DNA of 32,000 nucleotides from Megasphaera elsdenii DSM 20460. GTDB lineage: Bacteria > Bacillota > Negativicutes > Veillonellales > Megasphaeraceae. The DNA lies in assembly GCF_003010495.1 (NCBI RefSeq), contig NZ_CP027570.1:30001-62000 (forward strand), read 5' to 3'. The notes beneath the pieces were generated by a model that worked only from the letters and a program-made list of their open reading frames with translations, was not told where the DNA came from and made no database searches. This document shows positions 12,142-22,802 of the stretch, one piece after another. How positions within the stretch are numbered: the first letter of the stretch is position 1; every line of letters begins with the position of its first letter. Both the position numbers and the translations under genes were made by a program.

Positions 12142-14577
12142 TTAGGCGCCGAGGCCGGCCATGAGGGCCAGGTGATAGGTGACGAAGGCCAGGACGTACG
12201 AGAGGACGAGGCACATGCCGTTGCTGGCGAGGAGCATTTTCCACGAGCCCGTTTCACGTTTGATGACGGCCATGGCAGCGACGCACGGCATGTAGAGCAG
12301 GACGAAGACCATGAGCGACAGGGCGACGGCCTGGTTGAAGTCCGGATCATCTCTGAGGTAAGCGACGAGGCCCGATTCATGAGTATCGTCCCCGCCGACG
12401 CTGTAAATCGTACCCAGCGTGGAGACCATGACTTCTTTAGCAGCCGTGCAGGCGATGAGGCCTACGCCGATCTTCCAGTCGAAGCCGAGCGGTGCGATGA
12501 CCGGTTCTACGAAGTGACCGAGGCGGGCCGCATAGGACTGTTCCAATTTTTCAGCATTCTGCTGATCTTCGAGCTTAGACGTTTCGTCGTCCGCATCGGC
12601 TTTGGCATCGAAGAGCGGCAGGGCCTGGGCGAAGACGGCCGGATTCTGTTCCTGGAGATCGGCGAAGCTCTGCGGGTATTTGCCCATGAAGAGGTTATCT
12701 TCTGCATTTTCAGAGTCTTTGACCTGGTCTTCAACGGAGCTCAAAGCAGCAGCCGGGTTCAAGGCGTTGCCCGTATCGGCTTCGTTTTCATCGGCTTCGT
12801 CAGCGGCTTCATCGGCGGCGGCGACCATGGATTCATACATCTCATTCAAGGCGTCATTGTCTTCGATAGCACTGAGGCCATAGGACTGGAGGATGTCAGA
12901 TTGTTTCTGTTCCATTTCGGCTGTGACCTGATCTTTAGCGGCATCGAAATCCTGGGAATAATCGACATCCACCGGGTAAGCTGTGAGGAACCAAACCAGG
13001 ACAGAGGCACCGAGGATGAAGGTACCGGCTTTCTTGAGGTACAAGACCGTGCGTTCCCACATGTGCATGAGGACGCCTTTCAAGGTCGGAATGTGATACG
13101 GCGGCATTTCCATGACGAACGGTTCCTGTTCCCCTTTAAAGGTCGTGTGACGGAGGACCAGGGCGACGCAGATGGAAATAACGATGCCTAAGAGGTAAAT
13201 GCCGAAGAGGACTGTACCGCCGTGGCCGGAAGCGCCGAAGAAAGCAGCGATGAGCAGGGTGTATACGGGCAGGCGGGCGCCGCAGCTCATGAACGGGCAG
13301 GCCAGGATTGTGACCAGACGGTCTTTTTCGTTATCCAAGGTACGAGCGGCCATAATGCCCGGTACGTTGCAGCCAAAGCCGAGGATCATGGGGATAAAGG
13401 ACTTGCCGTGCAGCCCCAGGGCACGCATGGCGCGGTCGATGAGGAAAGCGGCGCGGGCCATATAGCCCGTATCTTCGAGAAGGCTGATGAATAAATACAA
13501 GAGGACGATAAGCGGGACGAAGGATAGGACGGAGCCGACACCACCGATGACGCCGTCGACGACGAGAGACCGGAGCTGTTCATCTTCGATGACATCACTG
13601 CACCAGTCGCCGAGCATGGAAAAGCCCGTATCGAGCCATCCCTGTGGGTAAGCGCCAACGTTGATGACGACGACGAACATGAGCCACATGAGGGCCAGGA
13701 AAATAGGAATCCCTAAATAGCGATGAGTCAAGACACTGTCGATCTTATCGGATAAGGAGTCGCTGGAACCGACATTGATAATCGATTTATTAAATACGTC
13801 TGTTGCGAATTGATATCGGCATTGAGCGAAATAAAAATCCAAATCAATCTTGCTGGTCAGAGAATCGCGCAGGGTCGAAGCCAGGGCCAGGATGGACTGG
13901 GTGCCTTCCATGGCACGGACTTTTTCGACGGCATCAGAGTCGTTTTCCAAGAGCTTGACAGCCAGCCAGCGGACCGGATATTTGATGATGCCCATTTTTT
14001 CGATGGCATCGGTCAAATTGGCGATAGCCGGTTCGACGTCGGGACCATAATCGACTTTGGCATTGACCAGGTCCTTCGTCTGCGTGCCGGAAATGGCGTC
14101 GAGCAATTCTTTCGTGCCGATGTTCTTGCTGCCGACAAGGGGCACGACGACGGCGCCGAGCTGCTGTCCCAGTTTCTTGAAGTCGATTTTGATGCCCATG
14201 CGGTCGGCAATATCCATCATGTTCAGGGCGATGACCATGGGCCGGCCCAGTTCGACAAGCTGTGCCGCCAGATATAAGTTACGTTCCAGGTTGGACGCAT
14301 CGAGGACGTTGACGATGATGTCCGGTTTTTCATTGATGATGACGTTACGGGCGACGACTTCGTCCAGGGACCGCGCCGTCAGGCTGTATGTACCCGGCAG
14401 GTCGACGAAGAGCAGGTCCTTGCCGTTGAAGGTGCGATGGCCTTCTTTCTTTTCAACAGTAACGCCAGGATAGTTGCCGACGTGCTGTTTGGCGCCGGTA
14501 ATGTTGTTAAAAATCGTCGTTTTACCGCAGTTCGGATTGCCGGCCAGGGCAATCTTGATTTTTGCTGCATTTTCCAT
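12142..14577 (-). CDS. feoB: Ferrous iron transporter FeoB (G-domain plus membrane permease)
   Basis: 811 aa with N-terminal GTPase motifs (GNPNCGKTT, DLPG, NMMD) and a polytopic membrane domain with the conserved Cys gate motifs. It contains a long acidic insert. Confidence 0.97.
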   Translation of the reverse strand: MENAAKIKIALAGNPNCGKTTIFNNITGAKQHVGNYPGVTVEKKEGHRTFNGKDLLFVDLPGTYSLTARSLDEVVARNVIINEKPDIIVNVLDASNLERNLYLAAQLVELGRPMVIALNMMDIADRMGIKIDFKKLGQQLGAVVVPLVGSKNIGTKELLDAISGTQTKDLVNAKVDYGPDVEPAIANLTDAIEKMGIIKYPVRWLAVKLLENDSDAVEKVRAMEGTQSILALASTLRDSLTSKIDLDFYFAQCRYQFATDVFNKSIINVGSSDSLSDKIDSVLTHRYLGIPIFLALMWLMFVVVINVGAYPQGWLDTGFSMLGDWCSDVIEDEQLRSLVVDGVIGGVGSVLSFVPLIVLLYLFISLLEDTGYMARAAFLIDRAMRALGLHGKSFIPMILGFGCNVPGIMAARTLDNEKDRLVTILACPFMSCGARLPVYTLLIAAFFGASGHGGTVLFGIYLLGIVISICVALVLRHTTFKGEQEPFVMEMPPYHIPTLKGVLMHMWERTVLYLKKAGTFILGASVLVWFLTAYPVDVDYSQDFDAAKDQVTAEMEQKQSDILQSYGLSAIEDNDALNEMYESMVAAADEAADEADENEADTGNALNPAAALSSVEDQVKDSENAEDNLFMGKYPQSFADLQEQNPAVFAQALPLFDAKADADDETSKLEDQQNAEKLEQSYAARLGHFVEPVIAPLGFDWKIGVGLIACTAAKEVMVSTLGTIYSVGGDDTHESGLVAYLRDDPDFNQAVALSLMVFVLLYMPCVAAMAVIKRETGSWKMLLASNGMCLVLSYVLAFVTYHLALMAGLGA

Positions 14578-14595
14578 GACTACTATGTACCCCCT

Positions 14596-14832
14596 TTATG
14601 ATTCAACAGCGACGGAAATCATGGCCGCTTCATTCATACGCAATGCCAGTGCGCACCCTTTGACTTTGACTTCGACAGGGTCTCCAAGCGGGGCCTTTTT
14701 GAAGACCGTAATGTGCGAGCCCTTGACGACGCCCATGTCGACGAGGCGGTGCTGGATGTTCCCCCGCCCTTCTAAGGCTTCGACGACGCCCGACTGGCCG
14801 ACTTTCATTTCGGCTAATGAAACAATTTTCAT
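14596..14832 (-). CDS. feoA: FeoA family ferrous iron transport protein
   Basis: 78 aa with an SH3-like FeoA pattern (L..M..G....V......G......L..MG...G..I.V....P.GDP). It lies directly upstream of feoB, with an AGGGGAG SD. Confidence 0.92.
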   Translation of the reverse strand: MKIVSLAEMKVGQSGVVEALEGRGNIQHRLVDMGVVKGSHITVFKKAPLGDPVEVKVKGCALALRMNEAAMISVAVES

Positions 14833-14855
14833 GACTAACTCCCCTTTTCTGGCCC

Positions 14856-15146
14856 TCAGACGGCTTCTTCCGTCCGGGCGGCTAATATGCTCTTCAGCGC
14901 GTTCGAGCTGCTCGTATGGGAACGGACGACTTCGACGTTCTTGCGCTGCGCTTCCTTGATGGCGCAGCGGACCATACTGTGGCTCACGGTGCTGGTAAAT
15001 AACACGACAAGATCCGGCGATCCGATTTTCGACTTGAAATCGCTCGGTACTTGTGTAAAGACTTTGGCCTTATAATCGTATTCTTTGCAGATACGCTTAT
15101 AACGACAAACCATACAATCATTTCCACCTACGATGACGACACTCAT
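14856..15146 (-). CDS. DUF2325-type small protein (first gene of the feo operon)
   Basis: 96 aa, MSVVIVGGNDCMVCRYKRICKEYDY...DLVVLFTSTVSHSMVRCAIKEAQR. From memory this matches the DUF2325 pattern that is commonly feo-linked in Firmicutes. AAGGAG SD. Confidence 0.75.
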   Translation of the reverse strand: MSVVIVGGNDCMVCRYKRICKEYDYKAKVFTQVPSDFKSKIGSPDLVVLFTSTVSHSMVRCAIKEAQRKNVEVVRSHTSSSNALKSILAARTEEAV

Positions 15147-15198
15147 TTACCTCGCTCCTTTCAGCTCCGTAAATAATACTCACACATCCCTTCTTTTA

Positions 15199-15213
15199 TG
15201 ATAATATATTTCA
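15199..15213 (-). promoter_or_regulatory. Fur-box-like operator just downstream of the feo promoter
   Basis: The minus strand reads TGAAATAtATTATCA, against the Bacillus-type 7-1-7 Fur consensus TGATAATnATTATCA. That is 11/14 matches, with the second half-site perfect. It lies about +5 to +20 relative to the -10. Confidence 0.4.
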
Positions 15214-15224
15214 TTACCAAAAAC

Positions 15225-15253
15225 ATTATATATTTTTTCACATAGTCTGTCAA
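15225..15253 (-). promoter_or_regulatory. Perfect-consensus sigma70 promoter of the DUF2325-feoAB operon
   Basis: The minus strand reads TTGACA (15253-15248), exactly 17 nt, then TATAAT (15230-15225). Confidence 0.75.
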
Positions 15254-15277
15254 TAGATGTTATTGAAATTCATTTAT

Positions 15278-15318
15278 AAAAAAGGGACTTGTCGTTTTGC
15301 GACAAGTCCCTTTTTAGG
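15278..15318. terminator. Rho-independent terminator after the P-type ATPase cassette (bidirectional form)
   Basis: A6, then gggacttgtcg, loop ttttg, cgacaagtccc, then T5. The stem is 11 bp and perfect. The stem core GGACTTGTCG/CGACAAG is shared with the terminator at 8504-8528. Confidence 0.85.
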
Positions 15319-15367
15319 GGCGCCCGTTCACGCCAATCCGTTCACAGACAGCTTACATATACCTGAC

Positions 15368-15393
15368 GGGCTCGCCACATGCGAGCCCCTACA
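15368..15393 (-). repeat. GC-hairpin+CTAC element (family C), copy 2, 25 nt downstream of the ATPase stop
   Basis: gggctcgc (15368-15375), loop cacat, gcgagccc (15381-15388), then ctaca. It is near-identical to 23402-23427. Confidence 0.8.
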
Positions 15394-15417
15394 AATATGG
15401 GCATGGGCGAGCCCTTA

Positions 15418-17511
15418 CTATGCGGAACGGCGGATGGTCCGCGCCGGTTTGAGGATGCGGACGCTGTTGAGGACGACGGCCAGGGTGGCTGTGTTATGGA
15501 TGACAGCGGCCCAGAGGGGGCTGATCTTCCCTAAGGCGCCGAGGAGCATGGCTGCCGAGTTGACTACGATGGTAGCCGTAAAGTTCTGGTTGATGGCCCG
15601 CATCGTTTCCCGCCCGATGTACAGGGCATCGTACAGTTTCGACGGGTCTTCAGAGCGGATGGTGATGGCTGCCGATTCAGCGGCGATGTCCGTCTTGTTG
15701 CCGCCGAGGCTGACGCCGATATCGGCAAAGGCCAGGGCCGGCGCATCGTTGATGCCGTCGCCGACCATCATGACGTTGCCCCGCTTCTGCATTTTCATGA
15801 CGTAATTGGCCTTGTCTTCCGGCAGGATTTCGGCATGATACGAGTCGATATCCATGTCGCGGGCGACTTCGGCGGCGACGTCCTTGGAATCCCCCGTGAG
15901 CATGACGACTTCGTCGATGCCCAGGCGGCGCATGCGGTTCAAGGTCTTCTTCATGCCCGGACGGACCGGGTCCTGGATGACCAAAAAGCCGAGATACCGG
16001 CCATTGCGGGCGATGTACAAGAGGTTCTTGCCCCACGTCTTGTTGTCCGTGGCCGGCATGCCTTCTACGCCTTCTTCGGTCATGAAGCGGCGGCTGCCGA
16101 CGAGGACGTCCCCGCCTTCGTAGCCTTCAAAGTCCGGCACGGCAGCTTTCATGCCGCGGGCGACGACCGTTTCCGACGAAGCGTGCGGCGGCGTCTGCCA
16201 GCCCTGGGCATTGACGTATTTCTGGACGGCTACGGCCAGGGGATGGACCGAGTGCATTTCTGCCGAAGCGGCGAGGAGGATCATTTCTTTATCATCGACG
16301 CCTTCGACCGTTTCGATATGGTCGATCTGCGGGACGCCCATGGTAATGGTCCCGGTCTTATCGAGGACGACCGTGTCGATGTCGGCCAGGTTTTCGATGT
16401 AGTTGCCGCCCTTGATGAGGATCCCCTTGCGGGCTGCCACGCCGATGGCGGCCGAGATGGCCGTTGCCGTCGACAATTTCAGGCCGCACGAGAAGTCGAT
16501 GAACAAGAGATTGAGGACGCGCTGCCAGTCCTTGGTCGCCCCGTAGACGATGGCTGCGCCGATGAAGGAGATAGGAACCAGGAGATTGGCCATCTTATCG
16601 GCAAAGTTCTGGACCGGTGCCCGGCGGGTCTGGGCTTCTTCGACGAGGTGGATGATCTGGGCCAGGGACGTATCGGCGCCGACCTTCTCGACGCGGATGA
16701 CCAGGTCGCCCGCTTCGATGACGCTGCCGGCATAGACCGGCGATTTTTCCTGCTTGATGGCCGGGTTCGATTCGCCCGTAATGGACGCCTGGTTGACGGC
16801 GGCATTGCCGCTGACGACGCTGCCGTCGACACAGATCTTTTCGCCCAGGTGGACGGCGATGAGGTCGCCCCGCTTCAGCGATTCGACGGGGACCTTGCGT
16901 TCATGGCCGTTTTCGACGAGCCAGACGTCGCGCTGGTCTAGTTTGAGCAGGCCCGAAATCTGACGGCGTGCCTTTTCGGCGGCGTATTCGGTCATCATTT
17001 CGGCGCCGTTCGACAGGGCCAGGAGGGTCAGGCTCGATTCGGGCTTGCCGGCCAGGACGGACGCAGCGACAGCCGTCGCCGTCAGCGTGTCGGCATTGGC
17101 CTGATGGTCTTTTACGAGGCCCAGGATGCCGTTCTTAATGTAACGGCGTGCAATATATAAGGTAAATAATCGGCGAAACAAGAGGATCGACCCGTAAAAT
17201 TCCGGATTGACCTTGCGCAGGATGTTCATGGCGATGAAGCCGCCGACGGAGATAATCGCTTCCCGGCGGTACGTGGCGACGTCCATATCGTCGTTCTTGG
17301 CTTCTTTCTTGCGGCCATATTTTTCTTCAAAAGCGCGGACGAAGAGCTGGAGCGCCCGCAGGTCCAGCCGTCCCATATAGTAGACAGTGACCTTCTTTTC
17401 TTCGACAACAGCTGAGACGATGCCCCGGACCTGGCGGAGCTTGACACTCAGGACAGGCCGCAGGCGGCTGGGGAGCTCGCTGTTCAGGAAGATCGTATTG
17501 CGCATGTACAT
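15418..17511 (-). CDS. Atypical P1B-type (heavy-metal) P-type ATPase, FezB-like / P1B-6-like candidate
   Basis: 697 aa with TGES (ITGES), DKTGT, MLTGDS and GDGINDAPAL motifs. The TM4 metal motif is F-S-C-G (codons at 16491-16483) in place of CPC. TM6 reads AVIHNTATLAVVLNS. The N-terminal ~75 aa form a cysteine-less HMA-like domain with no CxxC. A GAGGAGG SD lies inside the end of the upstream gene. Confidence 0.93.
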   Translation of the reverse strand: MYMRNTIFLNSELPSRLRPVLSVKLRQVRGIVSAVVEEKKVTVYYMGRLDLRALQLFVRAFEEKYGRKKEAKNDDMDVATYRREAIISVGGFIAMNILRKVNPEFYGSILLFRRLFTLYIARRYIKNGILGLVKDHQANADTLTATAVAASVLAGKPESSLTLLALSNGAEMMTEYAAEKARRQISGLLKLDQRDVWLVENGHERKVPVESLKRGDLIAVHLGEKICVDGSVVSGNAAVNQASITGESNPAIKQEKSPVYAGSVIEAGDLVIRVEKVGADTSLAQIIHLVEEAQTRRAPVQNFADKMANLLVPISFIGAAIVYGATKDWQRVLNLLFIDFSCGLKLSTATAISAAIGVAARKGILIKGGNYIENLADIDTVVLDKTGTITMGVPQIDHIETVEGVDDKEMILLAASAEMHSVHPLAVAVQKYVNAQGWQTPPHASSETVVARGMKAAVPDFEGYEGGDVLVGSRRFMTEEGVEGMPATDNKTWGKNLLYIARNGRYLGFLVIQDPVRPGMKKTLNRMRRLGIDEVVMLTGDSKDVAAEVARDMDIDSYHAEILPEDKANYVMKMQKRGNVMMVGDGINDAPALAFADIGVSLGGNKTDIAAESAAITIRSEDPSKLYDALYIGRETMRAINQNFTATIVVNSAAMLLGALGKISPLWAAVIHNTATLAVVLNSVRILKPARTIRRSA

Positions 17512-17514
17512 GAC

Positions 17515-18165
17515 TTAACGCCTCCTCAATAAAGACAGGGCCCACCACAGCATCTGCGGTCCTGTCGGGCGTTGACCCAGGAATACGGTCTTCCGCAGGC
17601 CGCGAAGGGTCAGGACTACGGCGATCAGGGTCCGCAAATCCAGGAAGGCCTTGCTTTTCCGAAAAATAGCCTGACTGAAGACGTCGGCCGTATCCTGGAC
17701 AGCCTTCAAATACGTCGCCGATTCCGCTTTCCCGGCTTCAGCCTGTCCGGCATCGCAGACGGCACCGACAAGGCCTTCTACGGCATTTGGAAAGAGGCGG
17801 AAGCGGAAAAAGTTTTCCAATTTATCCAAGGTCCCTTCGCTATGGGCGAAGACCAAGATGCTGCCCGTAACGGCGCTGACCTGGACGAACTGGACATCCG
17901 GCAGGGTGCTGACTTTTTCTTCGATCAATTTAGCCAATTCCGCATTGCCAACGAGGGCGGCCGCACGGTAACGGCGGCGTCCTTTCAAGACAGAAACGCA
18001 GGCAAAATGGGGCACAGCAGCGGCAGGCTTTGCCGCCTGGACCTGAGACCGGCATACACCGGCGGGCGCAGCTGCGGCAGCCGCTTTGCCCTTCTTATTG
18101 TGGAACATATCGTATACGGCTTTGCCAATCGACGTGCCCACCATAAAACCTGAGGCATAAGACAT
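17515..18165 (-). CDS. Hypothetical protein: Gly-rich N-terminal hydrophobic segment, Ala-rich linker, cysteine-less HMA-like domain and hydrophobic C-terminus ending in RRR
   Basis: 216 aa, MSYASGFMVGTSIGKAVY..KGKAAAAAAPAG...VLKGRRRYRAAALVGNAELAKLIEEKVSTLPDVQFVQVSAVTGSILVF...RTLIAVVLTLRGLRK...MLWWALSLLRRR. Its stop is 3 nt from the ATPase ATG. An AAAGGAGAAGG SD lies upstream. Confidence 0.8.
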   Translation of the reverse strand: MSYASGFMVGTSIGKAVYDMFHNKKGKAAAAAAPAGVCRSQVQAAKPAAAVPHFACVSVLKGRRRYRAAALVGNAELAKLIEEKVSTLPDVQFVQVSAVTGSILVFAHSEGTLDKLENFFRFRLFPNAVEGLVGAVCDAGQAEAGKAESATYLKAVQDTADVFSQAIFRKSKAFLDLRTLIAVVLTLRGLRKTVFLGQRPTGPQMLWWALSLLRRR

Positions 18166-18167
18166 AA

Positions 18168-18452
18168 TTACCTTCTCCTTTCAACGTGGCTCATGATATA
18201 ATTTTCTACCCGGACGAGTTCCCGGTTGGCCCGCAGGACCTGCGGACGATACGTGATCAAGACAGAACCCGTGAGGACATTGACATCGACTTTATCGATT
18301 TCTTTATAGCTGGCAATGTAGGCATAGACCTTGCGGCCCAAATCAGCATTGCCGACGAGTTTCTTGCTGTACAGGCGGATACGGCCCGGCAAGTAAGACG
18401 AAATAGTAACAGATCTCATGATGAGGTCCCATTTCGACGTCGGAATAATCAT
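18168..18452 (-). CDS. Small cysteine-less HMA-like (HMA_2-type) protein ending in RRR
   Basis: 94 aa, ...YLPGRIRLYSKKLVGNADLGRKVYAYIASYKEIDKVDVNVLTGSVLITY...HVERRR. Its stop is 2 nt from the next ATG. An AGGAAGGA SD lies 8 nt upstream. Confidence 0.8.
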   Translation of the reverse strand: MIIPTSKWDLIMRSVTISSYLPGRIRLYSKKLVGNADLGRKVYAYIASYKEIDKVDVNVLTGSVLITYRPQVLRANRELVRVENYIMSHVERRR

Positions 18453-18477
18453 ACAAGCAGTCCTTCCTGTTTTTTTC

Positions 18478-18516
18478 CTAAAAAAAAGAAGCCGTCATCC
18501 AAGACGGCCTCTTCTT
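18478..18516 (-). terminator. Intrinsic terminator (possible attenuator) between the small membrane-protein gene and the HMA-like/ATPase genes
   Basis: The minus strand reads AAGAGGCCGUC, loop uuggau, GACGGCUUCUU (11 bp with one G-U pair), followed by U8. The U-run ends only ~20 nt before the start codon at 18452. Confidence 0.75.
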
Positions 18517-18518
18517 GA

Positions 18519-18580
18519 GTTTGAAGTTTGTAGTTTTTAGTTTTCAGCAAGTGAAAACGCAAAGGCCTTCACTACAAACT
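18519..18580. repeat. Heptad repeat array forming a nested hairpin directly after the small-gene stop codon
   Basis: gtttgaa/gtttgta/gttttta/gttttca (18519-18546) are in exact 7-nt register. The outer stem is agtttgtagt (18525-18534) with actacaaact (18571-80). The inner stem is gttttca (18540-46) with tgaaaac (18552-58). Confidence 0.8.
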
Positions 18581-18798
18581 TATTTCGCCTGTGCGGCTTC
18601 CTGGGCTGCAATCATGTCTTCCAATTCTTCTTTCTGACGCTGCAATTCAGCCAGGGGAACCGACGCGGTCATAGCACCGGCAGCCGGCTGCTGCAGAGCC
18701 ATGAGCTGCTGTTCCCGTTCAGACATCAATTTGTAACCGAAGACGCCGGCGACGACACCGATACCTAAGCCAATCCAAAAATCTGTATTCTGAAACAT
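18580..18798 (-). CDS. Small membrane-anchored coiled-coil protein with a glycine-zipper TM (YtxH-like architecture)
   Basis: I prefer ATG 18798 (MFQNTDFWIGLGIGVVAGVFGYKLMSEREQQ...; 72 aa), because the SD AAGGGAG ends at 18808: it abuts the tracked ATG at 18807 but sits 9 nt from 18798. The protein has one TM with a GxGxGxxxGxxG pattern, then a Gln/Glu-rich helix. Confidence 0.75.
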   Translation of the reverse strand: MFQNTDFWIGLGIGVVAGVFGYKLMSEREQQLMALQQPAAGAMTASVPLAELQRQKEELEDMIAAQEAAQAK

Positions 18799-18843
18799 AC
18801 GACACATCTCCCTTTAAAATATTGATATTCATTTACAGCTATT

Positions 18844-18872
18844 ATTATAAAGTGCTTTTCTTCACGTGTCAA
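18844..18872 (-). promoter_or_regulatory. Perfect-consensus sigma70 promoter of the small membrane-protein gene (and probably the whole ATPase cassette)
   Basis: The minus strand reads TTGACA (18872-18867), exactly 17 nt, then TATAAT (18849-18844). Confidence 0.75.
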
Positions 18873-18884
18873 TAGTACTTATCA
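18870..18884 (-). promoter_or_regulatory. Weak Fur-box-like motif overlapping the -35 element
   Basis: The minus strand reads TGATAAGtACTATTG, 10/14 against TGATAATnATTATCA. The surrounding sequence is AT-rich, so this could be a chance match. Confidence 0.25.
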
Positions 18885-18966
18885 ATTTCATTAGTGCATT
18901 TTGTTATTATTGCAAACATAAAATCATCCTATATCGCCTGATTGCGCTATGTTACTGGGTTCCCCA

Positions 18967-18995
18967 TTTATTTTCCCGGCCGGATTTGCTATAAT
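18967..18995 (+). promoter_or_regulatory. Candidate promoter for the kinase-like gene
   Basis: An extended -10, TGcTATAAT (18987-18995), with a weak -35 (TTTATT) 17 nt upstream. Confidence 0.4.
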
Positions 18996-19029
18996 ATAGA
19001 AATACTTCCAGGTATAGAAACTGTAAATT

Positions 19030-19788
19030 ATGAAATTGTATCTTAATATTTTGAAAGGTGTGACTTTCTTGTTCAACAAGTCTCTCTTAAAATCCGTTCA
19101 GTCTGCCATTGCCGAACACCCGGACAAGCGGGTTTTATCGCTTTCATTTGAAAATAAAAAGTATTTCATCAAACGCCGCAGGGGCAACGGCCGCAATGCC
19201 TTTGCCAAACAGAACCCGTCTGCCGCGTTCTGGTGCGAAGCCTATAAGATCATGACCGTCAACGCCCGCCTGCGCCTGGCGCCGAAACTGGTCCTCCTGG
19301 ATGAAGACTTCTTCGTCATGGAAGCGGCCGGCAAGACCCTGCAGGGCGTCGCCAAAGAAGCAGAATATGCCGACGTCCGCCAGGAGGCCTTTGAAAAAGC
19401 CGGCCAGGGCCTGGCCCGTCTCCACGCCGCCGGACTGCACCACGGCCGGCCGGCCCTGCGGGACATCGCCTACGACCGGGAAGACGGGACGATTACCCTC
19501 CTCGATTGGGAAAACGAAAAGAAATTCGTCGACGCGCCGGCACCGGTCCTGGACCTGTTCCTCTTCCTGCACAGCTGTTTCCGCGAAGAATGGCCGGACA
19601 ACGCCCTCATCGATGCGGCTGTCGCCGGTTATGGCAGCGTCGAAGGCAGCGACCAGGTCTTCATGGCGCTGAAAGCCTTCATCGCAGACCACCACACCCT
19701 CTTCGCGGTGTGTCACGCCCTGACCCCCTTCGGCTGGATCGACGTCGTCTCCGTAGACAAGGCCAAAGCCTATATCGCCGCCTTATAA
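19030..19788 (+). CDS. Protein-kinase-like fold protein (LPS/Kdo-kinase or RIO-like family) with a non-canonical catalytic loop
   Basis: Lys-containing strand YFIKRR, hinge FFVMEAAG, catalytic-loop position LHHGRPALRDI (canonical form HxDxxxxN) and LLDWE in the DFG position. The start is uncertain. ATG 19030 has no SD, whereas the in-frame TTG at 19069 has GAAAGGTG 8 nt upstream. Confidence 0.6.
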   Translation: MKLYLNILKGVTFLFNKSLLKSVQSAIAEHPDKRVLSLSFENKKYFIKRRRGNGRNAFAKQNPSAAFWCEAYKIMTVNARLRLAPKLVLLDEDFFVMEAAGKTLQGVAKEAEYADVRQEAFEKAGQGLARLHAAGLHHGRPALRDIAYDREDGTITLLDWENEKKFVDAPAPVLDLFLFLHSCFREEWPDNALIDAAVAGYGSVEGSDQVFMALKAFIADHHTLFAVCHALTPFGWIDVVSVDKAKAYIAAL

Positions 19789-20898
19789 GACAGAAAAGGC
19801 CGCCGCACAGCGGATGTAGCCGCCAGGCAATTCCTCGGCGGCTTTTTTCATCTGCAGGGCCAGGAGGATGGGCAGCAGGTCGGCGACGGCCAGGCCCGTC
19901 TTTTCCAGGAGCTCGCTCACCGGCGCCGCCCGGTCGAAGGGGATGACGTCGATGACGGCCTGTTCAGCCGGGCTCAGGCTGGGTGCTGCTGCCTCAGCGA
20001 CGGTTTCCGGTCCCTGCCAGCCGCGGCGGCGAAATTCCCGGATTACATCGTCGACGCAGGTCAAGGGAATGGCGCCGAGCTGCAAGAGGTGGTTCGTCCC
20101 GCGGCTGGTCTCGGAAAAGACACTGCCCGGCATGGCAAAGACGTCGCGCCCTTCGTCGAGGGCCAGGTCGGCCGTAATCAGGGAGCCGCTGCGCAGGGCT
20201 GCTTCGACGACGATCGTCGCCGCCGCCATGCCGGCGATGATTCGGTTCCGGGCCGGGAAATTCCGGGACAGCGGCTCGACGCCAAAGGCATACTCGGAAA
20301 TGACGGCGCCGCCGTTCTCGACGACCTGCCGGAACAGGGCCTTGTTTTCCCTGGGATAAGTCCGGTCCAGGCCGTTGGCAGCGACGACGACGGGGCGCCC
20401 CTTCCCCTTCAGGGCGCCCCGGTGGGCCCGCGTGTCGATGCCCCGGGCACCGCCGCTGATGATGGTAAAGCCCTGGGCCGCCAGTTCGGCAGCCAGTGAC
20501 TCCGCCGCGTTCAGGCCGTAAGGGCTGGCCTTGCGCGAGCCGACGATGGCGAGGCTGCTGCTGTCGCGGCCCATCGTTCCCTGACAGAAGAGGACCAGCG
20601 GCGGCTGGGCGGTGAAGGGCAGCCACGCCGGATAGTCGTCATCCCACAGGGCCAGGGGCCGGACGCCATAGAAATCCAGCTGATGCTGGAATCGGTCCCA
20701 GTCAAAAACGTTTCGTTCTTGTCTGAGCTGGGAAAATATCTTGGCCGGGATTCCCGTCCGGCGCCGCAAATCCTCATCCCAGACGGCTTCCCAGGCCCGG
20801 CGCGGCGAGCGGCAGACGTCGAGGAGGGCCTGCAGGCGGCGGCTGCCGCAGCCCTTGAGGGACTGGAGGGCCGCGGCGTACATCGTTTCATGGTTCAC
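19783..20898 (-). CDS. dprA: DNA processing/protecting protein DprA (Smf)
   Basis: 371 aa with a Rossmann-like DprA core (IVGSRKASPYG...ISGGARGIDTRAHRGAL...PGS.....GTN.L). GTG start at 20898 with GGAGG 7 nt upstream. Confidence 0.92.
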   Translation of the reverse strand: MNHETMYAAALQSLKGCGSRRLQALLDVCRSPRRAWEAVWDEDLRRRTGIPAKIFSQLRQERNVFDWDRFQHQLDFYGVRPLALWDDDYPAWLPFTAQPPLVLFCQGTMGRDSSSLAIVGSRKASPYGLNAAESLAAELAAQGFTIISGGARGIDTRAHRGALKGKGRPVVVAANGLDRTYPRENKALFRQVVENGGAVISEYAFGVEPLSRNFPARNRIIAGMAAATIVVEAALRSGSLITADLALDEGRDVFAMPGSVFSETSRGTNHLLQLGAIPLTCVDDVIREFRRRGWQGPETVAEAAAPSLSPAEQAVIDVIPFDRAAPVSELLEKTGLAVADLLPILLALQMKKAAEELPGGYIRCAAAFSVL

Positions 20899-20911
20899 AG
20901 TCTTCCCTCCT

Positions 20912-22426
20912 TCATGGCTGCTGCATCTTATTGCGGTAACTGATGGCTTCGGCGACGTGTTCCTTGGCGATGACCGGCTCTTTGGCCAGGTCGGCGATGG
21001 TCTGGGACACTTTGATGATCCGATCGTAGCTGCGGGCGCTGAGGCGCAGGACGTCGAAGGCTTCGCGCAGCAGCTGCTGGGCTGCTTCGGTCAATTGGCA
21101 CGTCGCCCGTATCTCCCGGTGGCCCATGTGGGCGTTGCAGGTGCAGCCATAGGGCGCCAGGCGCTCCTGCTGGCGACGGCGCGCCGACAGGACCCGCGAG
21201 CGGATGGCTGCCGACGATTCGGCTTTCCGCCGGGTTATCAGTTCCTGGTACGCCGGCCGCTCGACGCGGACGTGGAGGTCGATGCGGTCCAACAGGGGGC
21301 CGGAAATCTTATGGGTGTAGCGGCGTATCTCGCTTTCTGAACAAATACAGCCTTCATCGAAGCCGTAACGGCCGCAGGGACAGGGATTCATGGCGGCTAC
21401 CAGGACGAAGCGCGACGGATAGGACAGAGCCGCCTGGACACGGGCGATATGGACGACACCGTCTTCCAGGGGCTGGCGCAGGACTTCCAGGACCGACCGG
21501 GGAAATTCCGGCAGTTCGTCGAGGAAGAGGACGCCGTGATGACTGAGGGTCACTTCGCCCGGCTTGGGGATGGACCCGCCGCCGACGAGGCCGGCCATGG
21601 AAATGGTATGATGCGGGCTGCGGAAGGGCCGCTGCTGCAGGAGACGGCCCTTCCCGAGGAGACCGGCGACGCTGTAGATTTTGGTCGCTTCCAGGGCCTC
21701 GGCTTCATTCATGGGCGGCAGGATCGTCGGGATGCGCTTGGCCAGCATGGTCTTGCCGCTCCCGGGCGGTCCGATCATGAGGACGTTATGGCCGCCGGCC
21801 GCAGCGATTTCCAGGACCCGTTTGGCTTCGGCCTGGCCCTGGACTTCGGAAAAATCGACGTCGTAATCGGGCAGGTCCGGGTCCGGCAGTGCGGCCCGGG
21901 CGGCCTCTAACGCCTTCTCGCCCGTCAAATGGCCGGCGACGTCGCAGAGAGTCCCGACGCCATAGACCGTAAGGTCCGGGCAGAGCAGGGCTTCGGCGGC
22001 ATTGTCCCGGCTGACGAAGACCGTCTTCATCCCCTGGGCCGCCCCTTCCAGGACCATGGGCAGGATGCCGTTCACCGGGCGGATGCGACCGTCCAGGGCC
22101 AGTTCACCCAGGAAGAGGCAGTTTTCGCAGACCTCTTCGGGAATCTGGCCGCTCGACACGAGGATGGCCACGGCCAGGCTCAGGTCGAGACCGGCCGTAT
22201 CCTTCTTGAGGTCGGCCGGCGCCAGGTTGACCGTCAGGCGGCGCATGGGAAATTCATAGCCGCTGTTCTTGACGGCTGCCCGGACCCGCTCTTTGGCCTC
22301 TTTCACCGACGTCGCGGCCAAACCGACCAGGTCGAACGACGGCAGACCGTTGGAGATGTCCGTCTCGACGGCGATGACATGGCCGTTCAGGCCCAACGTC
22401 GCCGCCCCGTAGATACGCGCGAACAC
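20912..22426 (-). CDS. comM: YifB/ComM family Mg-chelatase-like ATPase
   Basis: The true start is most likely GTG 22426 (VFARIYGAATLGLNGHVIAVETDISNGLPSFDLVGLA...), 5 nt after the yraN stop, giving 504 aa. It has Walker A GPPGSGKT, Walker B LFLDELPEF and a C-terminal ChlI-like domain. The tracked 621-aa ORF adds an implausible Arg/Ser-rich extension that overlaps yraN out of frame. Confidence 0.9.
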   Translation of the reverse strand: MFARIYGAATLGLNGHVIAVETDISNGLPSFDLVGLAATSVKEAKERVRAAVKNSGYEFPMRRLTVNLAPADLKKDTAGLDLSLAVAILVSSGQIPEEVCENCLFLGELALDGRIRPVNGILPMVLEGAAQGMKTVFVSRDNAAEALLCPDLTVYGVGTLCDVAGHLTGEKALEAARAALPDPDLPDYDVDFSEVQGQAEAKRVLEIAAAGGHNVLMIGPPGSGKTMLAKRIPTILPPMNEAEALEATKIYSVAGLLGKGRLLQQRPFRSPHHTISMAGLVGGGSIPKPGEVTLSHHGVLFLDELPEFPRSVLEVLRQPLEDGVVHIARVQAALSYPSRFVLVAAMNPCPCGRYGFDEGCICSESEIRRYTHKISGPLLDRIDLHVRVERPAYQELITRRKAESSAAIRSRVLSARRRQQERLAPYGCTCNAHMGHREIRATCQLTEAAQQLLREAFDVLRLSARSYDRIIKVSQTIADLAKEPVIAKEHVAEAISYRNKMQQP

Positions 22427-22430
22427 AGCC

Positions 22431-22802
22431 TCACCGCCTTTCTGCCTGGAAGGCGTGGACGAGGTGGCGGATAACGGGTTCCCCCTGGTCATCGGGCCAG
22501 ACCTCGATGACATCGAACCGGCACGGCCGCTCCCAAAGATCGAACTGGGCCAGGTAGGCCGAGGCAACGCGGGTGATCTTGCGGCGCTTGTTCCGTTCCA
22601 CGGCCTCACAGGGCAGGCCGTAAGCGGCCGTCGTCCGCGTCTTGACCTCGATGAAGACCAAGGTATGGCCGTCTTCGGCGATGAGGTCGATTTCCCCCAG
22701 GCGGTTGCGGTAATTGCAGCAGCGCACGTGATAGCCCTTCTCGTGGCGCACATAAGCCAGCGCCGCCTGTTCTCCATAATAACCTAATGCTTTCTTCTCC
22801 AT
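22431..22802 (-). CDS. yraN: YraN family (UPF0102) endonuclease-like protein
   Basis: The start is moved to ATG 22802 (MEKKALGYYGEQAALAYV...) with SD GAAGGGGGA. It carries the PD-(D/E)xK-like pattern GEIDLIA...LVFIEVKTR. Confidence 0.88.
   Translation of the reverse strand: MEKKALGYYGEQAALAYVRHEKGYHVRCCNYRNRLGEIDLIAEDGHTLVFIEVKTRTTAAYGLPCEAVERNKRRKITRVASAYLAQFDLWERPCRFDVIEVWPDDQGEPVIRHLVHAFQAERR

Follow-up and report, generated by a model that had tools for sequence, protein, structure and literature searches.

Organization of the locus

The subject of this analysis is a four-gene cassette in a 32-kb stretch of Megasphaera elsdenii DNA (the window, which is the whole stretch analyzed and to which all coordinates refer unless another locus is named). 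The genes, all on the minus strand, encode a 72-amino-acid (aa) membrane protein, two heavy-metal-associated (HMA)-like proteins of 94 and 216 aa, and a 697-aa P1B-type ATPase (Table 1). An initial annotation of this DNA had listed the genes with their promoter, junctions, and terminator and had interpreted them as a ferrosome (fez) cluster of a Negativicute, ferrosomes being organelles in which bacteria store iron. The observations are confirmed. The interpretation is partly supported: the parts list and the iron context of a fez-type system are present, but the pump falls outside FezB as that group is defined, and the small protein beside it is from a different, unnamed family. In our reading, to which we assign a probability of roughly 0.5, the cassette would be a ferrosome-like, low-iron-induced metal sequestration system with a FezB paralogue as its pump.

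All four open reading frames (ORFs) were recovered on the minus strand, and the promoter that had been called perfect does match TTGACA-17-TATAAT at 12 of 12 positions. Its -35 and -10 elements are kept in two further Megasphaera species. The gaps among genes 2, 3, and 4 measure 2 and 3 nucleotides (nt), and GGAG-type Shine-Dalgarno sequences lie inside the preceding gene, in keeping with the translational coupling proposed earlier. The strong terminator reported at the end of the cassette is likewise present. For gene 1, an alternative ATG at 18807 lies too near its Shine-Dalgarno sequence (GGGAG, which it abuts) and homologues begin with MFQN, so that translation likely starts at 18798.

The notion of one cassette behind one promoter is borne out by the promoter, the junctions, and the terminator but has to accommodate a hairpin past gene 1 that had been overlooked. 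This GC-rich element is followed by eight U residues (dG, -22 kcal/mol; z, -4.95) and is separated from the start of the 94-aa gene by about 25 nt, a gap too short to fit a promoter. Hairpins of unrelated sequence stand at the same place in two other Megasphaera loci, designated L084 (Megasphaera sp., GCA_900095875.1, 81% identity in the ATPase; here at both copies of the small gene) and L095 (85%), and in L081, the locus of a 59% relative; the position is kept in every Negativicute copy examined. Hence, the four genes do not form a simple uniform operon. The hairpin suggests an attenuator through which the small protein would come to outnumber the other three products. An Rfam scan of positions 15100 to 19100 found no riboswitch or small RNA, and a search of the 32-kb window found no tRNA.

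Table 1. Positions of the cassette genes, their cis-elements, and associated features
Feature	Locus	Position	Strand	Remark
Gene 1, 72-aa protein	Window	18580..18798	-	ORF
Gene 2, 94-aa protein	Window	18168..18452	-	ORF
Gene 3, 216-aa protein	Window	17515..18165	-	ORF
Gene 4, 697-aa P1B-type ATPase	Window	15418..17511	-	ORF
Sigma-70 promoter TTGACA-17-TATAAT	Window	18844..18872	-	12/12 match
Operator candidate TGTAAATGAATATCAAT, directly past the -10 element	Window	18819..18837	-	Degenerate Fur-type 7-1-7 site
Internal terminator-like hairpin and U-run (candidate attenuator)	Window	18476..18516	-	Folding energy
Intrinsic terminator closing the cassette	Window	15275..15315	-	16-bp stem and U6; dG, -33.2 kcal/mol; z, -5.56
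DUF2325-feoA-feoB operon, own promoter	Window	12142..15253	-	Adjoins cassette
Extra CoBaHMA protein	L087	8215-9072		
Extra CoBaHMA protein	L090	5097-5939		
Extra CoBaHMA protein	L091	5140-5961		
Extra CoBaHMA protein	L092	5074-5931		

The ATPase and its relatives

The 697-aa ATPase contains the complete set of P-type catalytic motifs (TGES, DKTGT, HP, TGD, and GDGINDAP). As the initial annotation pointed out, it has no CxxC domain and neither CPC nor SPC in transmembrane helix 4 (TM4), which reads DFSCGLK. TM6 carries HNTAT, and residues 1 to 130 contain no Cys at all. The protein is a P1B ATPase of the HNxxT super-group without CxxC domains. The N terminus shows a degenerate SRLR motif; the HMA_2 hidden Markov model (HMM) of this analysis matched the N termini of other members of the clade described below, not that of the window pump. 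FezB-type pumps also have an N-terminal HMA_2 domain.

Generic P1B models score high against the ATPase (527 bits for TIGR01525 and 400 bits for TIGR01512, a broad Cd-family model that it passes). The best matches among solved structures are CopA, CadA, and ZntA, and this search returned none from the SCG, FezB, or CtpC-like clades discussed here. Such scores would fit a conventional heavy-metal resistance pump of the Cu, Zn/Cd, or Co type that is served by soluble metallochaperones. We regard this as very improbable given that CPC, SPC, and CPH motifs and a CxxC domain are all absent, that the ATPase stays below the cutoffs of the Cu-specific TIGR01511 and of the CopA and ZntA equivalog models, and that the accessory HMA-like proteins have no metal-binding Cys pair.

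The ATPase was scored against 1.84 billion representative proteins, and the best 150 were aligned and their TM4 and TM6 motifs read. The nearest 20 or so among these 150 all carry D[FY][SVC]CG[LIVM][KR] in TM4 together with HNxxT in TM6 (the SCG clade), while the first pump with D[YF]SCA appears in the ranking at 385 bits and 39% identity. Characterized FezB and CtpC N-terminal motifs are absent among the 50%-identity representatives, and the clades are therefore labeled by motif. In a neighbor-joining tree built with 100 bootstraps from 560 columns of 134 full-length sequences, the D[FY][SVC]CG clade is monophyletic in 90/100 bootstraps, and an exclusive pairing of SCG with SCA pumps occurs in 1/100. 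The SCA clade joins a D[FY]G[TS]G clade, which is probably the FezH of Grant and Komeili, in 81/100, and SCG, SCA, and GTG pumps form one group in 69/100. Clustering with the Cu, Zn, or Co subfamilies was not seen, in line with the initial annotation, but neither was the clustering with FezB that it had predicted. Within the SCG clade, the TM4 glycine (G343) is invariant in 18 members; H672, N673, and T676 are invariant as well, and the TM4 variants include VCG and CCG.

In the definition of Grant and Komeili, a FezB (P1B-6) pump has D[Y/F]SCA in TM4 as well as HNxxT in TM6; SCA is also named as the P1B-6 mark in a 2026 review. In Supplementary Table 1 of Grant and Komeili, the Megasphaera cerevisiae ATPase (DFSCGLK/HNTAT) stands in a color group apart from FezB, together with those of Selenomonas, Propionispora, Clostridium kluyveri, C. 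sporogenes, Leptotrichia, Fusobacterium varium, and several bacilli; the FezB group of the same table holds Veillonella parvula, Acidaminococcus fermentans, and Clostridioides difficile. The Arg-rich motif at the N terminus of the M. cerevisiae protein is scored there as n/a. Of the three sequence features by which FezB can be recognized, the window pump thus shares HNxxT in TM6 and departs in its TM4 motif and its clade placement. On account of that motif, the tree, and the authors' own table, we take it to be a relative of FezB rather than a member, and the earlier assignment to FezB/P1B-6 is not supported.

This bears directly on the reading first given to the locus, namely that of an ordinary fez cluster whose bona fide FezB has undergone a trivial Ala-to-Gly exchange in TM4. 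The HNxxT of TM6, the N-x20-HN spacing that the window pump shares with a FezB-type pump, and the DFSC of TM4 agree with it, as do accessory classes that fit the fez description. It nevertheless seems quite unlikely, since an exchange that is invariant clade-wide, in a clade that also admits VCG and CCG, and whose members the neighbor-joining tree already tends to place outside FezB, hardly looks trivial. Moreover, the ferrosome authors color the SCG group apart, other Negativicutes (V. parvula and A. fermentans) own a true SCA FezB, and Firmicute FezB has its FezA-type partner in DUF6110, not in the small family found here.

Another alternative is a plasma membrane "effluxosome" of the CtpC/PacL type. 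CtpC has been reported to be a zinc exporter that works with a small scaffold, PacL, which has one TM helix with a GxxG motif driving clustering and whose Glu/Ala repeats attach to CtpC at its Cys-less N-terminal domain. By analogy, the 72-aa protein would stabilize and cluster the pump without any intracellular compartment, and the pump would serve either to load metalloproteins of the periplasm or to move a surplus or toxic divalent metal (Zn, Mn, Fe, Co, or Cd) into that space. The point-estimate neighbor-joining tree, in which the SCG clade stands beside a subset of the CtpC-like pumps, is in agreement with this. In the bootstraps, however, the SCG clade sides with the FezB and GTG clades at the frequency given above and forms a single clade with all CtpC-like pumps in 0/100.

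The small protein

The 72-aa protein crosses the membrane once. Its N-terminal helix contains GxxxG (GLGIGVVAGVFGYK), its C-terminal helix is rich in Glu and Ala (ELQRQKEELEDMIAAQEAAQAK), and the protein represents the hydrophobic GxxxG small protein that is a feature of fez clusters (GLGIGVVAGVFG). An alignment of seven members of its family yields a common architecture of one TM helix with small-xxx-small spacing, a linker, and a Glu/Ala-rich helix, EELxxQKEeLEDmIAeQEA. For six members of the family, Pfam gave no match at an E value of ≤10, to DUF1490 and DUF6110 or to any other entry, and NCBIfam, a PDB sequence search, and hhalign did not yield a family for it either. A profile search retrieved 1337 clusters, all of them unnamed "hypothetical" proteins and none with a Pfam domain.

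At two Firmicute loci of the FezB type, a small protein of DUF6110 is encoded upstream (E values of 2e-37 and, weaker, 8e-5); a mycobacterial review names this family "PacL-like." The small partner of the window pump is a separate, unnamed family, a difference of the kind that the initial annotation had allowed for. A proteobacterial locus differs again: in L021 (3620-5584), a six-gene fez-type locus, a 126-aa HMA_2 protein is found with a GxxxG protein that has weak DUF5132 and YtxH matches. With respect to the CtpC/PacL alternative, the 72-aa protein has the same architecture as PacL, a likeness that we treat as analogy rather than homology, but it matches neither DUF1490, the PacL family, nor DUF6110.

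The HMA_2 proteins

Both HMA-like proteins had been expected to match HMA_2, and both do match PF19991 above the gathering cutoff (for the 94-aa protein, E = 3e-12 at residues 15 to 75; for the 216-aa protein, E = 3e-23 with the full profile covered). The Pfam family HMA_2 equals CoBaHMA, a form of the HMA fold in which the metal-binding Cys pair is missing, one strand is added at the N terminus, and a basic patch is conserved. The 94-aa protein is a free-standing domain of this kind with the basic motif LPGRIRLYSKK and has orthologues in L084 and L095. The 216-aa protein consists of an N-terminal GxxxGxxxG helix (GFMVGTSIG), a CoBaHMA domain with GRRRY (GRRRYR), and a C-terminal helical hairpin; its most conserved residues are GRRRY, TGSIL, and the C-terminal RPSGPQMLWWA with which the hairpin ends. 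A 99% identical counterpart in M. elsdenii is annotated "HMA2 domain-containing protein." Two details of the initial annotation need adjustment. The accessory proteins had been called Cys-less, and it is true that CxxC is absent and that the 94-aa protein is free of Cys, but the 216-aa protein has three. Likewise, the Arg-rich tails alone do not suffice as a description; the key element of this kind is GR(I/R)R, an N-terminal motif in the HMA-like domain.

An AlphaFold2 model of the 216-aa protein, built from a 23-sequence alignment, has a mean predicted local distance difference test score (pLDDT) of 67. It comprises a helix at residues 3 to 22 carrying GxxxGxxxG, a disordered linker, a core at residues 54 to 124 with the order beta0-beta1-alpha1-beta2-beta3-alpha2 (pLDDT, ~90), and C-terminal helices at residues 148 to 170, 177 to 195, and 201 to 213. 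The top Foldseek matches are ATP7B metal-binding domains, CsoZ, MerP, and KipI-like YbgJK, with weak E values (≥0.025) and probabilities of up to 0.99. The predicted model and the fold search agree with a CoBaHMA fold. This domain was first seen in calcyanin and in the neighbors of ccyA in cyanobacteria that make intracellular CaCO3, and one ccyA neighbor combines CoBaHMA with a C-terminal helical hairpin in the same layout as the 216-aa protein. Gaschignard et al. are said to have proposed in 2024 that the basic face of the domain binds anionic partners such as lipids.

Conservation of the cassette

Among the distinct SCG-clade loci examined, all 11 contain the small protein and 10 contain free-standing HMA_2 proteins. 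Starting from SCG-clade ATPases of 43 to 81% identity, we found a small-protein homologue in 6/6 loci and at least two free-standing HMA_2 proteins in five of these, the sixth having HMA_2 fused to the pump. In the other direction, three loci that were reached from the small protein (Desulfosporosinus youngiae, Clostridium botulinum C, and Peptacetobacter) encode pumps with DYSCG[IV][KR] together with two to four HMA_2 proteins. L095 keeps the four genes (70, 94, 213, and 694 aa) amid entirely different flanks, which marks these genes, rather than their neighborhood, as the conserved unit.

Controls came from a scan with the SCG-clade alignment, which, through the universal P-type motifs, returned 80 loci, none of them SCG; they comprise 3 FezB-type comparators and ~77 negative controls. 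HMMs made from the cassette proteins matched at every SCG locus but found a free-standing HMA_2 protein or the small protein in none of the ~77 CopA, ZntA, CadA, or other P1B-ATPase loci. The small and HMA_2 families thus recur with SCG pumps and not with the ordinary P1B pumps of this sample, a co-occurrence that the initial annotation had named as a check. The conventional Cu/Zn/Cd resistance pump is largely refuted by the motif and tree data, and its loci lack the accessory set throughout this sample. The CtpC-like locus that was sampled had neither a free-standing HMA_2 protein nor a member of the small family, which counts against the CtpC/PacL alternative as well.

Several loci depart from the four-gene layout. 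In L089 (6001-8595), an 864-aa SCG-clade pump carries a CoBaHMA module fused to its N terminus, and the gene for the small protein follows closely downstream. The fused arrangement lends support to the view that HMA_2 protein and pump interact physically. At L084 (1307-2114), the small gene occurs again in a 69-aa version that has a terminator hairpin of its own and is accompanied by a 171-aa HMA_2 protein. This pair adjoins a DUF3793-flavodoxin operon and, in convergent orientation, a P1B ATPase of the classical-HMA type, so that small protein and HMA_2 can also occur without an adjoining SCG pump. The clostridial, Peptacetobacter, and Desulfosporosinus modules include an extra protein of 273 to 285 aa, absent from Megasphaera, that starts with a CoBaHMA domain and is hydrophobic in its middle part (Table 1). 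In Clostridium botulinum C strain Eklund (L091, 2927-5137), the SCG-type ATPase is split into ORFs of 523 and 161 aa, a probable frameshift or pseudogene in that strain.

Iron context and possible regulation

The feo operon next to the cassette has a perfect TTGACA-17-TATAAT promoter of its own (15253-15225) and a Fur-like site (15213-15199). Its FeoB is long (811 aa), with an acidic low-complexity insert at about residues 545 to 640. The DUF2325-feoA-feoB neighbor also occurs at L084. Scanned with the Firmicute 7-1-7 consensus (TGATAATNATTATCA; at most 3 mismatches), the 32-kb window contains only three Fur-type sites, two of which lie just past the -10 elements of the cassette and feo promoters. 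The cassette candidate (18837-18823) has 3 mismatches to TGATAATNATTATCA, and the block around it, TGTAAAnnnnTATCAAT, is conserved in three Megasphaera species (the window, L084, and L095), whereas the flanking spacer diverges. In L081, two near-perfect Fur boxes (1 and 2 mismatches) stand between the cassette and a divergent DUF3793-flavodoxin operon, and one 2-mismatch site precedes the operon of Desulfosporosinus. In the control loci, such sites occur about once per 43 kb. The 19-mer E. coli Fur box has no match in the window at ≤3 mismatches.

Ferrosome genes have been reported to be induced by iron limitation, and these sites make the same type of control plausible for the Negativicute copies of the cassette. 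The Fur-type operator and the feoAB and flavodoxin neighbors in Negativicutes point to expression at low iron, which would be futile for an iron exporter and in that respect disfavors the CtpC/PacL alternative.

On the other side of the cassette, a 252-aa ORF without a Pfam match at an E value of ≤0.01 (19030-19788, plus strand) diverges from the cassette promoter region. Beyond it, on the minus strand, lie dprA (DNA_processg_A) and a 621-aa ORF resembling ComM/Mg-chelatase-type ATPases (19783-22777), which are ordinary housekeeping neighbors.

Proposed function

Grant and Komeili describe fez clusters as encoding a hydrophobic GxxxG protein, R-rich HMA-type proteins, and an HNxxT pump without CxxC, with iron homeostasis genes as neighbors. 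By virtue of its GxxxG protein, its Arg-rich HMA-like proteins, and the adjacent feoAB, the cassette still matches this parts list. We therefore favor a ferrosome-like function and envisage the following sequence of events. During iron limitation, the cassette would be derepressed together with the neighboring feoAB via the candidate Fur-type operator. Most transcripts would end at the hairpin, giving an excess of the 72-aa protein, and the pump and the two CoBaHMA proteins, coupled in translation, would be made in smaller amounts from read-through transcripts. The 72-aa protein may oligomerize through GxxxG into a membrane scaffold, with its Glu/Ala-rich cytoplasmic helix engaging the basic face of CoBaHMA. 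The CoBaHMA proteins themselves would carry no metal; instead, they may bind anionic lipids and act on the pump as tethers or regulators. The 216-aa protein would be anchored by both its N-terminal GxxxG helix and its C-terminal helical hairpin. Finally, with a site formed by Ser-Cys-Gly in TM4 and His-Asn-x-x-Thr in TM6, the ATPase would move a divalent metal, Fe2+ being the most probable one, from the cytosol into a membrane-bounded store, as proposed for FezB.

Several observations weigh against this reading. The adjacency to feoAB is missing at L095, and the Fur-type sites of the window are degenerate, with 3 mismatches each. At the clostridial and Peptacetobacter loci, which adjoin a ZIP permease, a good Fur, Zur, or PerR site is missing (the Zur and PerR scans being uninformative in AT-rich spacers); the metal may consequently differ between lineages. 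The small protein has no detectable kinship to DUF6110, the FezA/PacL-like family (hhalign probability of 3.7%, over the TM helix only). After the SCG clade itself, the next relatives of the pump are CtpC-like (ACPCA[AV]G/HNxxT, 39 to 42% identity) and score equal to or above the FezB type. Furthermore, since the pump differs from FezB in motif and clade, experiments on FezB are not simply transferable to it. Two of these points, the ranking of the CtpC-like pumps among the non-SCG relatives and the ZIP metal permease beside the clostridial SCG loci, also speak for the CtpC/PacL alternative, which we consider less likely than the ferrosome-like reading but its main rival.

If ferrosome-like sequestration is indeed the function, a broader proposal can be made, albeit a tentative one that we would not yet favor: the SCG cassette, consisting of the pump, two to four CoBaHMA proteins, and a Pfam-less single-pass scaffold, might specify a second, FezB-independent class of membrane-bounded metal storage organelles that is widespread in Firmicutes (Negativicutes, Clostridia, and Bacilli). 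Ferrosomes have so far been shown for FezB (SCA) systems only, although the ferrosome authors already list the SCG clade as related, and a 2026 review asks whether other ferrosome-like structures exist and hold other metals. Taken together with the cyanobacterial CaCO3 inclusions, such a class would make CoBaHMA proteins combined with small TM proteins a general toolkit for bacterial biomineral compartments, possibly with metals other than iron in some lineages. Conversely, if the CtpC/PacL alternative were true, PacL-type scaffolding of P-type ATPases would reach far beyond Actinobacteria.

Either outcome would provide a function for many gut and rumen proteins that are annotated as "HMA2 domain-containing" or "hypothetical protein." The cassette defines an unnamed family of small proteins with about 1300 sequence clusters that is tied to the SCG pump clade at the loci examined, and it suggests an attenuator that sets stoichiometry. 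It also offers a compact four-gene test object in a culturable and agriculturally important anaerobe of the rumen and gut, with relatives in Clostridium botulinum, Peptacetobacter, Pontibacillus, and Desulfosporosinus.

Comparison with known systems

The characterized fez clusters (fezABC of D. magneticus, the six-gene fez of S. putrefaciens and R. palustris, and the fez genes of C. difficile) share with the cassette an HNxxT pump that lacks CxxC and has a Cys-free N-terminal domain, putatively of the HMA type in the window pump, a small hydrophobic GxxxG protein, and HMA-like proteins with GRxR, one of them soluble (FezD-like) and one membrane anchored (FezC-like). Iron uptake genes are adjacent as well, for the cassette in the window and at L084. 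The S. putrefaciens fez genes have been reported to give a dark pellet and granules of roughly 20 nm. In contrast to fez, TM4 of the cassette pump reads SCG and not SCA and the pump falls in a separate clade; the small partner is Pfam-less and of neither the Firmicute DUF6110 nor the proteobacterial DUF5132/YtxH-like type; and the cassette has at least two free-standing HMA_2 proteins per locus.

CtpC-PacL1 of Mycobacterium tuberculosis is similar in that a pump with HNxx(S/T) and no Cys in its N-terminal domain is encoded together with a single-pass protein that has a small-xxx-small TM helix and a Glu/Ala-rich cytoplasmic helix. Its pump is at about the same sequence distance from the window pump as FezB is. 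However, TM4 of CtpC contains CPC where the window pump has SCG, PacL belongs to DUF1490, which the 72-aa protein does not match, and CtpC is induced by zinc, whereas the cassette lies in an iron uptake context. The sampled CtpC-like locus, moreover, has HMA_2 solely as the N terminus of the pump and adjoins znuABC.

The third comparison is with the CoBaHMA proteins of cyanobacteria that form intracellular amorphous calcium carbonate (iACC), i.e., calcyanin and the products of ccyA neighbors. These contain the same domain, either stand-alone or fused to a C-terminal helical hairpin, and are accompanied by glycine-zipper or single-TM small proteins. The mineral, the phylum, and the genetic context (a Ca/H antiporter rather than a P1B ATPase) are different, and the GlyZip triple repeat of calcyanin is not found in the cassette. 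Proteins of DUF5132 and CoBaHMA flank ccyA in the CaCO3 inclusion loci of Microcystis (bioRxiv 10.1101/2024.07.07.602159). Given that DUF5132-type and CoBaHMA proteins also occur together in the proteobacterial fez-type locus L021, the same kinds of small proteins are present in two unrelated intracellular biomineral systems.

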